A DNA stretch of 64,000 nucleotides from Acidimicrobiales bacterium (GTDB lineage: Bacteria > Actinomycetota > Acidimicrobiia > Acidimicrobiales > Bog-793): contig JBEKBT010000003.1 of NCBI GenBank assembly GCA_050015255.1, positions 2,593-66,592 on the forward strand. Direction: 5' to 3'. The notes beneath the pieces are model-generated. The model was not told the DNA's origin and ran no database searches. It saw nothing but the letters and a program-made list of their open reading frames with translations. The translations under genes were made by a program, and so were the position numbers. Numbering within the stretch: the stretch's first letter is position 1; each line of letters starts with the position of its first letter. This document shows, one piece after another, positions 58,809 to 63,527 of the stretch.

Positions 58809-59792
58809 CTAGAGCGACACAGCAGCGCCGCTGCCGAGCGCTTCAAGGGTCGCTGTGCGACCCAGTTCGATCATTTCCGAAGCCCGGTGAAAATCGATCG
58901 TGCGACAGGCGTCCTTGGAGATCGTTATGAGAACATCGGGTGGATTGGAGGCCAACCGGTGCCTGGTGAGCTCGCTCTGCATCGTTTCGAGCGACTGGTT
59001 GACCACGTCGAACTTGCTGAGACGGGCAGGCAGGGACTCGACTGCTGCGCCGGCTGGCGACGTGGCCTCGTCACCCACCGGAACCGAGCTTGATGCTCCA
59101 CCGAAACGGCTCATCACCGACCGGACCAAGTCGCGGTCGATCAGATGAGCCGGGCCTTTGCGGAAGCGCTCGATCCATTCTTCGATCGGACGCTCTTCAG
59201 CGGTCTCCCCGGCAGAACCTCCGTGGGGCATTCCACTGCGCTCTCCGCCGAGATCGATAGCGATTGTCACATCGGCCGCGGACGAGGCGACCGGCGCGAG
59301 CGGAACCGGGTCCATCACGCCACCGTCGACGAGTAGTCGGCCGTTCAACATCACCGGCGTGAACACGCCCGGGATGGCGATCGACGCCCGCATCGCCACC
59401 TCCAGCGGCCCTCGTTGGAACCACACGGCCTTGCGCGCGAACAGATCGGTGGCCACGGCGGTGAAGGTCACTGGAAGGTCCTCGATCAAGACATCGCCAA
59501 CGAGTTCGTGCACATGGGCGAAGATCTTCTCGGCCCTGATCACACCGGGCGCGGAGAGCGAGGGATCCAAGAGACGCAGCACGTCGACCTGGGTGAGGCC
59601 ACAAATCCAGTCCGTGTACTCGTGGAGCTTTCCCGCGGCATAGAGCCCGCCGACCAGGGCGCCCATCGAGGCGCCGGAGACAGCGACAATCTCGATGCCT
59701 CGCTCCTCGAGCACCTGGATTGCGCCAATGTGCGCGTAACCGCGGGCACCTCCGCTCCCCAGCGTCAGCGCGGCGCGTGTTCTGTGCTCCAT
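58809..59792 (-). CDS. patatin-like phospholipase (RssA-like)
   Basis: LGSGGARGYAHIGAIQVLEE (oxyanion GGxR), GASMGA (GxSxG) and VDGGVMDPVP (catalytic Asp). Confidence 0.85.
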   Translation of the reverse strand: MEHRTRAALTLGSGGARGYAHIGAIQVLEERGIEIVAVSGASMGALVGGLYAAGKLHEYTDWICGLTQVDVLRLLDPSLSAPGVIRAEKIFAHVHELVGDVLIEDLPVTFTAVATDLFARKAVWFQRGPLEVAMRASIAIPGVFTPVMLNGRLLVDGGVMDPVPLAPVASSAADVTIAIDLGGERSGMPHGGSAGETAEERPIEEWIERFRKGPAHLIDRDLVRSVMSRFGGASSSVPVGDEATSPAGAAVESLPARLSKFDVVNQSLETMQSELTRHRLASNPPDVLITISKDACRTIDFHRASEMIELGRTATLEALGSGAAVSL

Positions 59793-60072: not shown

Positions 60073-60702
60073 GTGGCCGACATGCTCCTCGAGGACGTGC
60101 GCTCCGCCGAGTTACGGCGCCCGGACGAGCGCACGGTGGCCTGGAGCGAGTGGGGACCCAGCTGACGGTGATCCCTTGCCGCGGCCTGCCTGGGCGCGGC
60201 ATCGGGGGCAGCGGCGGGGGCCCTCGTGTGCTGGCTCTGGCCCCTCGCCATCCCGACCGGTCAAAGCAGCGACAGTGGTCGTCGGCGCGGCACCGTTGAC
60301 CGAGGACGAGATGGGCGGTCTCATCGGCTCAACGCCGAGTCCCACTGGCTGATCCCGGTCGGAGACCTGGATGGGTTCCGACGGCTGCTAGAGCGGCTCC
60401 CTGCGAGTCTGCTCAAGGACCCGATCGGCGGTTTCCTGGCCGCCATGGACAAAGCCCCAGAAACAGACCGAGTTGTCATGGGAGACCCGGACTGGCAGGC
60501 GAGGCATGCTCTGGCGACTCGGGAGGCGCTTCGGGCTGGTGTCGACGGTTGGTTCGACGAGGCGATCGCTCTGGAGAGGGCTTGGAGCGAGATCGACCTG
60601 AGCGCGGTTGGCACGTCCCTGACCTGGTGGCTCGCCGGCAGCGACGCCAACGTCCCGCTGTCAGCGGCCCACAATCCGATCCCTCCGGGCCCGCCTCCTT
60701 AG
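60073..60702 (+). pseudogene. heavily degraded alpha/beta hydrolase gene (at least 4 frame changes plus an internal deletion)
   Basis: Pieces in three frames: VADMLLEDVRSAELRRPDERTVAWSEWGP (stop at 60163); DGDPL...; GLPGRGIGGSGGGPRVLALAPRHPDR (nucleophile elbow, frame of ORF 60048..60299); VKAATVVVGAAPLTEDEMGGLIG (frame of ORF 60071..60352); LNAESHWLIPVGDLDG...WWLAGSDANVPLSAAH (frame of ORF 60226..60702). The total span of ~210 codons compares with ~280-300 expected. Confidence 0.5.
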
Positions 60703-60744: not shown

Positions 60745-63216
60745 TCAGAGATCTTCCAGGATCTGGTGCAGTCTCAGCGTGACCTCTCCATAGTCCATAT
60801 GTCGATCAAATCTAACCGGGTCCCCAATGCGGACCGTGACCTTACTATGGCGCTTCGGCCACTTCGAGTGCAGGGGCACCGTCCCGAATAGACCGATCGT
60901 CTTCAGCGGTACCACGGGAGCATCCAGGTCCACGGCGAGCAGCCCTATGCCCGATTTGAACGGCTGCAGGACACCATCGGTGCTCAAGCGGCCCTCGGGC
61001 GCGATAACGACGCTCCAACCTTCATCCACGAGAGTCCCAACATACTCCATACTGGGCATATAAGGCTCAGAACGGGCGAAACCAAAGCCAGCGAAGCAGA
61101 GCCTGATGATAAAGGCCAGCACTTTATGCTGCCGCATCACATCGTCCGCCGCCGCGACTGTCAAACGCTTCCGGATACGTCTTGGTAACGCCTGATACAC
61201 CGCTGGCCCGTCGAAGTCATCGCTGTGGTTGAAGATGTACAAAGCCGGTGTGGCCAGATCGTCGAGCTTGTCGCGCCCTTCGACACTCATTCTGACCCAG
61301 ATTCCCACTATCGACCGCACAACCACTTCGCGAGTGGCGTCCCCCAACAGTCGCACCCAACGCCGGTACGGCCAGGAGGGCCGAGGAATGGGCCGCTCGG
61401 CCGGGCCGCCAGCGGCCACCAACCGCCTCAAGTCCCCCACGGTCGTGCTCTTGGTCACGTCCTCTTCCGGGACGCTGATGCCCAGTTGATCCTCAATCAA
61501 GGTGACAACCGTCAGCCTTCGCAGCGAGTCGAGGCCTAGGTCGGCCAATCGATCCGACTCCTTGATCTCTTTTCGTGGCTCGTCCAAGCTTTCCCGAATG
61601 ATGTTGTCCAGTACCTCTTCCTCCGGGGCCCTCTCCGGCGCCTTCGGCTCCTCCTCCTGACCGGTCTGATTCGCCCATTGCTGAACCTTCTTCCGGTCCG
61701 TCTTCCGCATTCGGTTGAGAGGAAATTTCGCGTCCGGCCAACGACGCCAGGCACTTATGTGCTGAAACGACTCCAACTGGCCGTTGATTGCGTCAATTGC
61801 CTGGCTGATCTCGCTATCGGAGCCGTCAGAAATGACGACGGCCACGACCTCCTCGCCATCGGGTCGCCTAACGCCAACGACGCAGACCGCAGAAAGAATC
61901 GGATAGTTGGCGGCGACAAGCTCGATGTCCTCAGGAAAGACCTTGAGGCCGCTGCTCAACACGATGGCGAACTTGAGCCGCCCCTCAATGTACAACCAGC
62001 CATCTCGCAACTGCCCAGCATCACCCGTTCTGAACCAGCCGTCCGCGGTAAACGCGTCACGGGAGGCTGTCGGACTCTGCCAGTACTCCTTGAAGACGGT
62101 GGGCCCTTTGGCTTGGATCTCCCCGTCCTCACCAATACGCAGGTCCACGTTGTCGAGCGCACGGCCCGGCGAGTCGAGACGGCGCTCGTGTAAGGGGTTC
62201 ATCGTCAAAATGGGCCCGGTCTCTGTGAGACCGTAACCCTGCAGCGCCCGGACCCCCATGCTCTCCCACGCCCTGCCGACCTCGACAGGAATCGGCGCCC
62301 CTCCGGTGATGACGAGGTCCAACCTGCGCCCCAGCTGTGAGTGCACACTCCTGAACAGTTGCCGACGGAGCGCGAACGGCAGCACAGCGGCCAACTTCGA
62401 AGCCGTCGCCAGAGCCCTGGCCTTGCCGTCAGCCGCGGCGACTTGTTGTATTCGTTTGAGCAGTAGAACCAGGAGCTGCGGAACGGCAAGGATCGTGGTT
62501 ATGTGGTATTCCTGCAGGGCGCGGCCCATAGCGATCGGCGAGACGCTCGGCACATAGAAGATACTGGCGCCGTGCGCCAGAGGTGCGACCGTGCCGCCCG
62601 TTATCTCGTACATGTGGGAAAGCGGCAACACGGACAGGAACCGCCAGTCTGGGCCGACGTTCAACACCCGAAGTGCGGCCTCGGCGTCGGCCAAGATGTT
62701 CTTCTGGCTCAGGACGACGCCCTTGGGTTCGGCAGTGGTACCTGAAGTGAACACGATCACCGCTGGGCAGTCACCGCTCAACTCAGTGGCCGGGGCCGTG
62801 GCCGGATACTCGGCAATACGCTCGTCAAGCTCGTCGAGCAAGTTGACGATGGGAAGGTTGTCGAGCTCGGGGTGCATATGCTGGTTCCGAAAGACCAGCT
62901 TCGGTCCGGTCTCGTCGATGAACCTCAGCGTCGTTGCCGGATTGCTGCCTGCGTCGATCGGCACCAGAATCGCACCAAGAAGCTGGGTGCCCAGAAACAG
63001 TTCTACCCAAGCGGGCGAGTTGTTGGCGACGACTGCGACTCGGTCTCCCGGCTGAACATCACGAGCCAGGAGGAAGTTCGCCGTTTGATAGGTCCGTTGC
63101 TGTAGCCCGCGATAGTTGAGCCTTTCAATCTGGAGGAATGGCCGTATAGTCATCGCCAGCCGTTCGTCGTGATTCGCAAAACTGGCTACAAAGTCGCCGA
63201 AATGGCGGCTGGTCAT
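60745..63216 (-). CDS. tri-domain protein: fatty-acid adenylating (ANL) domain + acyl carrier domain + PlsC/LPLAT-type glycerolipid acyltransferase domain (823 aa)
   Basis: ANL domain, aa 1-515: VFTSGTTAEPKG, QGYGLTETG, WFRTGDAG, GRLKFAIVLSSGLKVFPEDIE. Carrier domain, aa ~535-600: LADLGLDS(564)LRRL, with the Ser codon at 61525-61527. LPLAT domain, aa ~615-823: FNHSDDFD (NHx4D), FGFARS, IAPEGRLS, VVPL. Lower GC than the window average. Confidence 0.85.
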   Translation of the reverse strand: MTSRHFGDFVASFANHDERLAMTIRPFLQIERLNYRGLQQRTYQTANFLLARDVQPGDRVAVVANNSPAWVELFLGTQLLGAILVPIDAGSNPATTLRFIDETGPKLVFRNQHMHPELDNLPIVNLLDELDERIAEYPATAPATELSGDCPAVIVFTSGTTAEPKGVVLSQKNILADAEAALRVLNVGPDWRFLSVLPLSHMYEITGGTVAPLAHGASIFYVPSVSPIAMGRALQEYHITTILAVPQLLVLLLKRIQQVAAADGKARALATASKLAAVLPFALRRQLFRSVHSQLGRRLDLVITGGAPIPVEVGRAWESMGVRALQGYGLTETGPILTMNPLHERRLDSPGRALDNVDLRIGEDGEIQAKGPTVFKEYWQSPTASRDAFTADGWFRTGDAGQLRDGWLYIEGRLKFAIVLSSGLKVFPEDIELVAANYPILSAVCVVGVRRPDGEEVVAVVISDGSDSEISQAIDAINGQLESFQHISAWRRWPDAKFPLNRMRKTDRKKVQQWANQTGQEEEPKAPERAPEEEVLDNIIRESLDEPRKEIKESDRLADLGLDSLRRLTVVTLIEDQLGISVPEEDVTKSTTVGDLRRLVAAGGPAERPIPRPSWPYRRWVRLLGDATREVVVRSIVGIWVRMSVEGRDKLDDLATPALYIFNHSDDFDGPAVYQALPRRIRKRLTVAAADDVMRQHKVLAFIIRLCFAGFGFARSEPYMPSMEYVGTLVDEGWSVVIAPEGRLSTDGVLQPFKSGIGLLAVDLDAPVVPLKTIGLFGTVPLHSKWPKRHSKVTVRIGDPVRFDRHMDYGEVTLRLHQILEDL

Positions 63217-63527
63217 GTGCCCATCCTGTAGGCGACGGCGACCGCGTAGTCACCGTGATGAGAAATCGACACGGCAAACTCTTGTGCTCCGATTCGGGCG
63301 TGGGGCTTGCCAGAGGCGTCGTGACTGATAACAATGTCAGTCCACTTGTCGGGTGCAGTTGCAGCAGCCTTCACGACCGCTTCTTTGGCCGCCCATAATC
63401 CCGCCAGATGTTCGAGCTGCTGGCCGTTTATCTCCGATGGGCTGAAGGCCCTCTGCATCAATTTGCCGGCGCTGACCTCGAGTCGTTCTCGAAATTCGGG
63501 TATGAAGACCAGGTCAATTCCAACCAT
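63213..63527 (-). CDS. AcpS-type holo-(acyl carrier protein) synthase / 4'-phosphopantetheinyl transferase (104 aa)
   Basis: MVGIDLVFIPEF..., AFSPSE, LAGLWAAKEAVVKA and VSISHHGDYAVAVA follow the AcpS pattern. The stop overlaps the start of the tri-domain gene (ATGA at 63213-63216). Confidence 0.8.
   Translation of the reverse strand: MVGIDLVFIPEFRERLEVSAGKLMQRAFSPSEINGQQLEHLAGLWAAKEAVVKAAATAPDKWTDIVISHDASGKPHARIGAQEFAVSISHHGDYAVAVAYRMGT

Follow-up and report, generated by a model that had tools for sequence, protein, structure and literature searches.

The question raised by a 2.8-kb locus of an Acidimicrobiales bacterium (Bog-793) is whether a small AcpS-type phosphopantetheinyl transferase (PPTase) and the large fatty-acid-activating acyltransferase encoded immediately after it work together as an acylation module of their own. 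The locus is located within a stretch of 64,000 nt, referred to here as the window (assembly GCA_050015255.1, contig JBEKBT010000003.1, positions 2,593-66,592 of the forward strand). The large gene, called the tri-domain gene below, encodes in a single chain an adenylating domain of the ANL superfamily, an acyl carrier protein (ACP) domain and a PlsC-like lysophospholipid acyltransferase (LPLAT) domain. The module is a real and well-conserved pair, comprising an Aas/ElbD-like fatty-acid-activating acyltransferase with a distinctive linkage to a PPTase. With a probability of about 60%, this pair functions as a self-priming, coenzyme A (CoA)-independent acyl-transfer module, similar to Aas but with a built-in carrier and a reversed domain order. 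The features on which the argument rests are the following.

63213..63527, minus strand: acpS-like gene, 104 aa (PF01648), with its stop codon TGA at 63213-63215
60745..63216, minus strand: tri-domain gene, ANL-ACP-LPLAT, 823 aa (Pfam, motifs)
63213..63216, minus strand: ATGA stop/start overlap of the acpS and tri-domain genes (sequence reading)
61681..63168, minus strand: ANL adenylating domain, residues 17-512 (PF00501; TSGTTAEPKG 157-166, YGLTE 328-332, TGD 397-399, A10 Lys505)
61423..61611, minus strand: carrier (ACP) domain, residues 536-598 (PF00550; Ser564 codon 61525-61527)
60748..61383, minus strand: PlsC-like LPLAT domain, residues 612-823 (PF01553; H664-D669 at 61210-61227, R715, PEG 740-742)

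Domain anatomy and conservation of the two proteins

The presence of three modules in one chain, deduced in an initial sequence-only reading, was borne out by the Pfam order and by intact active sites. The 823-aa protein contains AMP-binding (PF00501, residues 17-379, E 9e-67, 226 bits against a cutoff of 29.9), a weakly matching AMP-binding_C (residues 418-493), PP-binding (PF00550, residues 536-598, E 2e-11, 44 bits against 20.8) and Acyltransferase (PF01553, residues 644-771, E 9e-16, 58 bits against 23). Carrier, LPLAT and ACPS domains were thus all found when hidden Markov models (HMMs) of PF00501, PF00550, PF01553 and PF01648 were run, and the motifs picked out in that reading lie exactly where it had placed them, including the Ser564 codon. 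In an alignment of 24 relatives with 51-78% identity, the ANL motifs A3 (TSGTTAxPKG), A5 (YGLTE), A7 (TGD), A8 (GRLK) and A10 (Lys505), the carrier motif DLGLDS564L (D563, S564, L565), and the LPLAT residues H664 and D669 (HX4D), R715, P740-E741-G742 and P767 were found to be invariant. Since the catalytic motifs are invariant across these relatives, the tri-domain proteins are functional enzymes under selection and not chance assemblies of motifs. The first domain belongs to the ANL superfamily by profile as well as by motifs A3, A5, A7, A8 and A10, the second to PF00550 by profile and its DSL serine motif with helices predicted at 535-544, 564-578 and 593-602, and the third to the PF01553 LPLATs by profile, motifs I-IV and a PlsC-like fold. 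The DSLRRL motif in helix II was considered as a reason for a special AcpS and was dropped, because DSLxR occurs family-wide, including in members without AcpS.

Further comparisons defined the type of each domain. The best solved relative of the ANL domain is the M. tuberculosis fatty acyl-CoA synthetase FadD13 (3R44, E 5e-44), while the fatty acyl-AMP ligase (FAAL) 3PBK matches at just E 5e-23, both values being whole-domain match scores. The best NCBIfam matches of this domain are long-chain fatty acyl-CoA synthetases (NF004837). The carrier domain taken alone best matches acyl carrier proteins of the fatty-acid synthase (FAS) type, and the LPLAT domain best matches the LPLAT part of Aas-type acyl-[ACP]--phospholipid O-acyltransferases (PRK08633, PRK06814), followed by 1-acylglycerol-3-phosphate (AGP) acyltransferase. 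The AlphaFold2 (AF2) model of the LPLAT domain (pLDDT 81, pTM 0.81) retrieved T. maritima PlsC as the top Foldseek match (5KYM, E 2.5e-10, TM 0.65), followed by PatA and GPAT1, so that NCBIfam and the fold search together settle the carrier as FAS-type and the transferase as PlsC/Aas-like. The full-length AF2 model (pLDDT 82, pTM 0.77) is confident except for the linker 520-533, and a hydrophobicity scan of the 823-aa protein revealed no transmembrane-grade segment.

These assignments bear on the idea that the pair serves the synthesis of a specialised lipid or natural product, either by selecting an unusual carboxylic acid or by acylating an acceptor outside the glycerolipids, for instance a glycolipid, aminolipid or secreted metabolite. 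Adenylation-carrier-offloading logic with a dedicated PPTase is typical of secondary-metabolite loci, PatA among the above fold matches is a PF01553-fold enzyme that acylates glycolipids, and the variable context and low GC content of the module fit accessory functions. However, the PPTase is of AcpS type and the carrier of FAS type rather than of the Sfp and peptidyl carrier protein (PCP) types, the ANL domain is nearest to fatty-acid ligases, no ketosynthase, condensation, thioesterase or tailoring genes were found near the module in the contexts inspected, and one sub-clade resides stably among the housekeeping genes holA, rpsT and lepA, which together make such a specialised role improbable.

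Identification of the 104-aa product as an AcpS-type PPTase was likewise upheld, by matches to PF01648 (ACPS, E 5e-14, 52.7 bits against a cutoff of 25) and to the general PPTase-domain model TIGR00556 (70 bits against 45) and by conservation of the catalytic residues. Among 112 family members, the Mg-binding/catalytic residues D5, E49 and K53 (each at least 99%) and H90 are conserved at approximately 100%, and a single PF01648 domain with the Asp/Glu residues and the catalytic Lys places the protein among group I AcpS-type PPTases. It falls outside the housekeeping AcpS equivalogs NF000831, NF000832 and TIGR00516, with 59.5 against 124, 47.3 against 107 and 36.6 against 59.8 bits, respectively. 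Canonical AcpS of the B. subtilis/M. tuberculosis type (~120-130 aa) has the same PF01648 fold family and shares the conserved D5/E49/K53 residues and the S-I/V-S/T-H motif (SISH here). In contrast to it, the short AcpS is ~20 residues shorter due to three deletions, as seen in an alignment with canonical sequences, scores below all equivalog cutoffs and is found solely next to tri-domain genes.

Linkage of the short AcpS to the tri-domain gene

Overlap of the two minus-strand genes by ATGA was verified from the open reading frames (ORFs) and from the junction, which reads ...GGC ACA TGA with the tri-domain ATG at 63216-63214 and hence an overlap of 4 nt. AGGA is located 9 nt upstream of this ATG, and the arrangement may be described as translational coupling of acpS and the tri-domain gene. 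By gene coordinates, the same ATGA overlap is present at the loci L086, L088, L091, L092, L094, L180 and L181, and an overlap of 1 nt at L098. An Rfam search of the 59.5-64 kb region found no family, the promoter-like sites were just two and both on the plus strand inside acpS, opposite to the gene, and terminator-like sites around the locus were no more numerous than in shuffled sequence.

Among close relatives, with an identity of at least 50%, the gene immediately upstream of the tri-domain gene is that of the short AcpS. This pair occurs in eight contexts that have no other common neighbour, namely the window, L086, L088, L091, L092, L094, L098 and L180/L181, and 24 further AcpS matches lie on contigs of the same length as that of a tri-domain match. 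When the AcpS was used as a query in a metagenome scan, 80 loci were returned. An ANL(-ACP-LPLAT) gene follows the short-type AcpS directly at all 36 loci with downstream sequence and also at L160, where a more distant AcpS directly precedes a distant tri-domain gene (37/37 in total). At none of the 41 metagenome loci with a canonical-type AcpS does such a gene follow. The short AcpS was thus never seen apart from its tri-domain partner, and this co-occurrence, together with the eight unrelated contexts, establishes the PPTase as a partner of the large gene and not a chance neighbour, as had been suspected from the window sequence. Such a pairing appears to be undescribed in the literature.

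This linkage also argues against the alternative that the 104-aa protein is simply the housekeeping AcpS of the genome, serving the ACP of fatty-acid synthase, with its position being uninformative on a dedicated role. No other PPTase or carrier was found in the 64-kb window or in flanks of up to 10 kb, the ACP of the tri-domain protein being the only carrier-like sequence in the window. Moreover, some actinobacteria have their housekeeping acpS next to fatty-acid genes, as in the fas-acpS arrangement of mycobacteria. Both points would suit a housekeeping role. However, besides being confined to the 37 paired loci and failing every NCBIfam AcpS equivalog cutoff, this acpS shares the anomalous GC content of the module and accompanies it from one unrelated context to another and across phyla, and three loci (L006, L096 and L097) have a tri-domain gene without AcpS within ~8 kb. 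A housekeeping identity is hence regarded as very improbable. A private AcpS, alongside a second PPTase elsewhere in the genome, would gain indirect support from the constant linkage of the short type and from the relatives without one nearby.

These three loci form a 57%-identical sub-clade, in which the tri-domain gene lies between holA and a gene of the major facilitator superfamily (MFS), near rpsT and lepA. They probably use another PPTase, as no unlinked short AcpS was found. Since distant tri-domain relatives also lack AcpS within ~10 kb, the proposal that the module is self-contained is upheld for this lineage and does not extend to the sub-clade or to the whole family.

Some individual loci deserve mention. 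L160 (NPID01000292.1, 3956-6935, 34% GC) encodes an AcpS of 118 aa, for which the short-AcpS model gives a higher score than the canonical one. Directly after it come a distant ANL-ACP-LPLAT gene and the gene of a DUF2298 membrane protein, and hence AcpS pairing exists outside the main family. In L116 (4051-4487), the complete pair is followed by another AcpS-like ORF, which is partial, and by a short N-terminal ANL fragment, and in L117 (3998-4488) an intact short AcpS is followed by ~70 aa of ANL alone despite 3.8 kb of further contig; these fragments could stem from an assembly artefact or from the module having been partly duplicated or deleted. In L003 (ENA ERZ25039544 contig_13117, 1.9 Mb), a patatin gene is split in two calls and acpS is uncalled, though its ORF is intact in a six-frame scan. 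Gene counts for L003 need care, since frameshifts in this patatin gene look likely.

Spread, neighbouring genes and signs of horizontal movement

The architecture is less novel than was initially assumed. The ANL-ACP-LPLAT order is not rare: 138 of the best 150 representatives obtained by a library search of 50%-identity clusters exceed 750 aa, and domain HMMs revealed ANL-ACP-LPLAT in 138/138 of them. A genome scan gave, among the matches listed, full-length relatives at 25-36% identity in multiple phyla and at least one close relative, the distant ones being from Acidobacteriota, Verrucomicrobiota, Nitrospirota, Planctomycetia, Alpha- and Gammaproteobacteria, Melainabacteria and Clostridiales. 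The literature searches yielded no characterised ANL-ACP-LPLAT enzyme, with passing mentions alone, in which fusions of FAAL or FAAL-like proteins with lysophospholipid acyltransferases are referred to as uncharacterised (PMC8460268) and ElbD-like homologues of other phyla, mostly without a fatty acyl reductase (FAR) domain, are described as unstudied (PMC9131029). ANL-ACP-LPLAT proteins are thus a large multi-phylum family, known to exist and without an established function. According to the latter source, a review of myxobacterial plasmalogen synthesis, ElbD consists of an N-terminal FAR-like domain followed by acyl-CoA synthetase (ACS), ACP and AGP acyltransferase (AGPAT)-like domains, of which the ACS and ACP domains proved active in vitro and acyltransferase activity was not detected (PMC9131029). 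The order ANL-ACP-reductase-AGPAT, initially assumed for ElbD, does not agree with this description. In addition, split elbD genes (Re | A-ACP-AT) have been described in Poribacteria and Acidobacteria (bioRxiv 10.64898/2026.06.23.733905).

Outside the acpS/tri-domain pair the neighbours vary, yet lipid-related membrane proteins recur. The neighbour on the downstream side in the window is the following.

58809..59792, minus strand: patatin-like phospholipase (PF01734), ~950 bp downstream of the tri-domain gene

The patatin gene is kept in same-species contigs only and is a possible functional neighbour rather than a conserved part of the module, and in the distant Melainabacteria relative L039 a patatin gene lies directly upstream of the tri-domain gene. 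A flippase-like gene (TIGR00374, related to the flippase domain of MprF) is found directly downstream in four lineages and one MFS family directly downstream in five, and an MFS gene lies directly upstream in L026 (Planctomycetia) and two genes upstream in L029 (Alphaproteobacteria). Designation of the downstream MFS protein as LplT was rejected, as no NCBIfam lysophospholipid-transporter model matched and generic MFS models alone did so, far below cutoff. In L181 a gene for cyclopropane-fatty-acyl-phospholipid synthase (PF02353, 12596-13708, minus strand) adjoins the tri-domain gene in convergent orientation. The L181 contig has 40% GC and proteins labelled Saccharimonadales by NCBI, and transposase genes flank this PF02353 gene. 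Within the window, a 158-aa ORF (60226-60702, plus strand) without a Pfam match on record is convergent with the tri-domain gene, is kept in same-species contigs, is longer in L100 and may be a gene remnant. Downstream of the module in L001 (17312-21906, at lower window coordinates), urocanase and formimidoyltransferase-cyclodeaminase genes flank three AcnX-family calls (133, 107 and 247 aa), which may represent a single gene interrupted by frameshifts or a true multi-part AcnX.

Both the family-wide architecture and the neighbourhoods have a bearing on a further alternative, in which the tri-domain protein is a reductase-less ElbD-type enzyme of de novo glycerolipid or ether-lipid synthesis that acylates dihydroxyacetone phosphate (DHAP) or glycerol-3-phosphate in a first step like that of GNPAT/GPAT. 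Its domain set is indeed that of ElbD (ACS, ACP and AGPAT-like) minus the reductase, the split elbD variants mentioned above provide a parallel, human GPAT1 is among the fold matches of the LPLAT domain, and hosts without fatty-acid synthesis would need an acyltransferase that carries out the first step with free fatty acid. However, there is neither a FAR/NAD_binding_4 domain nor room for one, and none of the best 150 representatives is extended far enough at its N-terminus to accommodate a reductase domain. No elbB-, elbE- or agps-like neighbours were found in the window or in any context inspected, a FAD oxidase near L094 that was considered as AGPS being GlcD/YdiJ-like instead, and Acidobacteria relatives have no FAR, elb or PPTase genes adjacent. 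As the best matches of the LPLAT domain are moreover of the Aas type and PlsC rather than GPAT, this ElbD-like role is judged unlikely.

The claim that the locus is lower in GC than its surroundings was confirmed, with 60.2% for the 2.8-kb module against a window mean of 67.3% (sd 1.8), which makes it the lowest stretch of that length in the window, and with a GC content at third codon positions (GC3) of 0.73 against 0.8-0.89 in neighbouring genes. The hosts of the family fall into two classes by flank GC, of 58-69% (labelled Acidimicrobiales) and of 38-53% (labelled Saccharimonadales), the NCBI labels of the matches being either Acidimicrobiales or Candidatus Saccharimonadales. The pair is thereby shared by soil actinobacteria and the very small Saccharimonadales bacteria. 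Consistent with the Saccharimonadales label of the L180 contig, all named relatives of its serine hydroxymethyltransferase belong to Patescibacteria/Saccharimonadales (75-81% identity). L006 (CAJCJA010000040.1) is titled 'Candidatus Saccharibacteria bacterium', and its 62% GC and the synteny APH-folP-holA-tri-domain-MFS are as in L096/L097, whose proteins are labelled Acidimicrobiales. Because GC and synteny match Acidimicrobiales-labelled contigs, this title looks doubtful. Neighbour-joining with 200 bootstraps recovered the window clade, of 7 sequences, and a second clade of high GC, whose 10 sequences include those without AcpS, at 100% support each, and placed them among low-GC sequences with a support of just 0.67-0.73. 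Modules of the window clade are 3-8 GC points below their flanks, and those of the second clade differ from their flanks by +2 to -3 points. In L086 (3032-4036 and 15075-17235), transposase/integrase genes are present on both sides of a trio of acpS, tri-domain and flippase-like genes on a 1.9-Mb contig of 44% GC, which is consistent with mobility of the module. The GC gap to the flanks and the tree nesting at 0.67-0.73 thus fit the earlier hint of acquisition and would tentatively point to a lower-GC donor.

Absence of fatty-acid synthesis and recycling of lipids have been reported for some Patescibacteria (PMC12455944), and on this account the Saccharimonadales copies are the most interesting lead. 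They suggest a tentative proposal, possible but doubtful, that acpS with the ANL-ACP-LPLAT gene provides the missing Saccharimonadales (Patescibacteria) route from scavenged fatty acids to own membrane lipids, with the window copy being a horizontal import from that lineage. This proposal draws on the Saccharimonadales labels, the L180 marker gene, the nesting of high-GC sequences with moderate support and the GC gap. Cultivated Saccharibacteria live on actinobacteria. If such a route exists, AcpS would be private by necessity in cells without fatty-acid synthesis, and the module in Saccharimonadales is a candidate membrane-building route for those Patescibacteria.

Proposed function and comparison with known systems

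From the observed domain anatomy, conservation and AcpS linkage, we infer the chemical steps, the substrate and the acceptor of a self-priming, CoA-independent acyl transfer. The 104-aa AcpS, produced by coupled translation with its partner, would place phosphopantetheine on Ser564, after which the ANL domain, with its intact motifs, would adenylate a free fatty acid and load it as a thioester on the Ser564 arm. The PlsC-like domain with its His664/Asp669 dyad would then move the acyl chain to a hydroxyl of a membrane-lipid acceptor, most likely a lysophospholipid and less likely glycerol-3-phosphate or DHAP. Since the protein has no membrane-spanning segment, its action is proposed to be at the cytoplasmic membrane face. 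The physiological role may lie in the salvage of fatty acids, whether free or scavenged, and in repairing or remodelling membrane lipids, in some lineages perhaps acting together with the transporter- or flippase-like protein encoded directly downstream.

In favour of this mechanism, the invariant catalytic residues are counted along with a FadD13-like ANL domain, an Aas/PlsC-like LPLAT domain and a FAS-type ACP, such ACPs being natural substrates of AcpS-type enzymes. Further support comes from the 4-nt overlap, the eight contexts, the pairing at 36/36 loci and L160 against 0/41, the intact AcpS residues, and the flippase-like, MFS, patatin and cyclopropane-fatty-acyl-phospholipid synthase neighbours. 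Precedents are provided by the LplT-Aas cycle in E. coli (PMC4666226), by use of host fatty acids through AasC and the LPLAT CT775 in Chlamydia (PMC5693948), and by the homologous ACS and ACP activities of ElbD in vitro. Several points weigh against it. The ANL domain is nearer to CoA ligases than to FAALs and hence use of CoA is possible by sequence, and priming by another PPTase is possible, because L006/L096/L097 and all distant relatives have no adjacent AcpS. PF01553 enzymes also acylate glycerol-3-phosphate, DHAP and non-glycerolipid acceptors. The transporter, patatin and cyclopropane-fatty-acyl-phospholipid synthase neighbours occur in a minority of lineages and are absent or not adjacent in many, with the downstream MFS protein lacking a match among lysophospholipid-transporter models. 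In addition, acyltransferase activity went undetected for ElbD, and literature searches gave no biochemically characterised reductase-less member.

Should the mechanism hold, one soluble protein and a 104-aa helper would suffice to incorporate free fatty acids into membrane lipids with neither CoA nor the cellular ACP pool, providing a first function for a multi-phylum family annotated just as 'AMP-binding protein' or 'long-chain acyl-CoA synthetase' and offering lipid engineering a compact part of two genes. With its strict AcpS linkage and apparent Saccharimonadales/Acidimicrobiales transfer, the module would at the same time exemplify a carrier enzyme that travels together with the enzyme priming it.

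Among known systems, E. coli-type Aas likewise has, in one chain, a fatty-acid-activating ANL domain along with a PlsC-type LPLAT and employs an ACP-bound acyl intermediate, and it is with Aas families that the LPLAT domain described here scores best. However, the LPLAT domain of Aas is N-terminal by profile positions, in agreement with the order LPLAT-ANL assumed beforehand, whereas the order is reversed here, with ANL followed by LPLAT. Aas uses free ACP, while in the present case the carrier is fused and an AcpS gene attached, and the 823-aa protein lies outside the Aas families NF005959, PRK08633 and PRK06814 (147, 138 and 20 bits against cutoffs of 1349, 1221 and 886, respectively). An adjacent transporter gene, as in E. 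coli lplT-aas (PMC4666226), is found with some tri-domain relatives, although their MFS proteins are not recognised by the transporter models. In C. trachomatis, the acyl-ACP synthetase AasC (CT776) and the acyltransferase CT775 are encoded side by side and convert scavenged host fatty acids to own phospholipids (PMC5693948). These are two proteins using free ACP, with no fused carrier and no dedicated PPTase, unlike the module. Compared by its published description, M. xanthus ElbD has the ACS, ACP and AGPAT-like domain set in common, but the tri-domain protein lacks the reductase, its ANL domain starting at residue 17 without any NAD_binding_4 match, and has no elb operon partners or AGPS nearby. 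Proteins of ElbD length are absent from the best 150 cluster representatives, and no mention of a PPTase with the elb operon was found in the literature searched. Another parallel is found in the myxobacterial polyunsaturated fatty acid synthase Pfa3, whose C-terminal AGPAT takes the acyl chain from an in-cis ACP into a glycerolipid. There, however, the chain is built by polyketide synthase-like domains, whereas here it would be captured by the adenylating domain.

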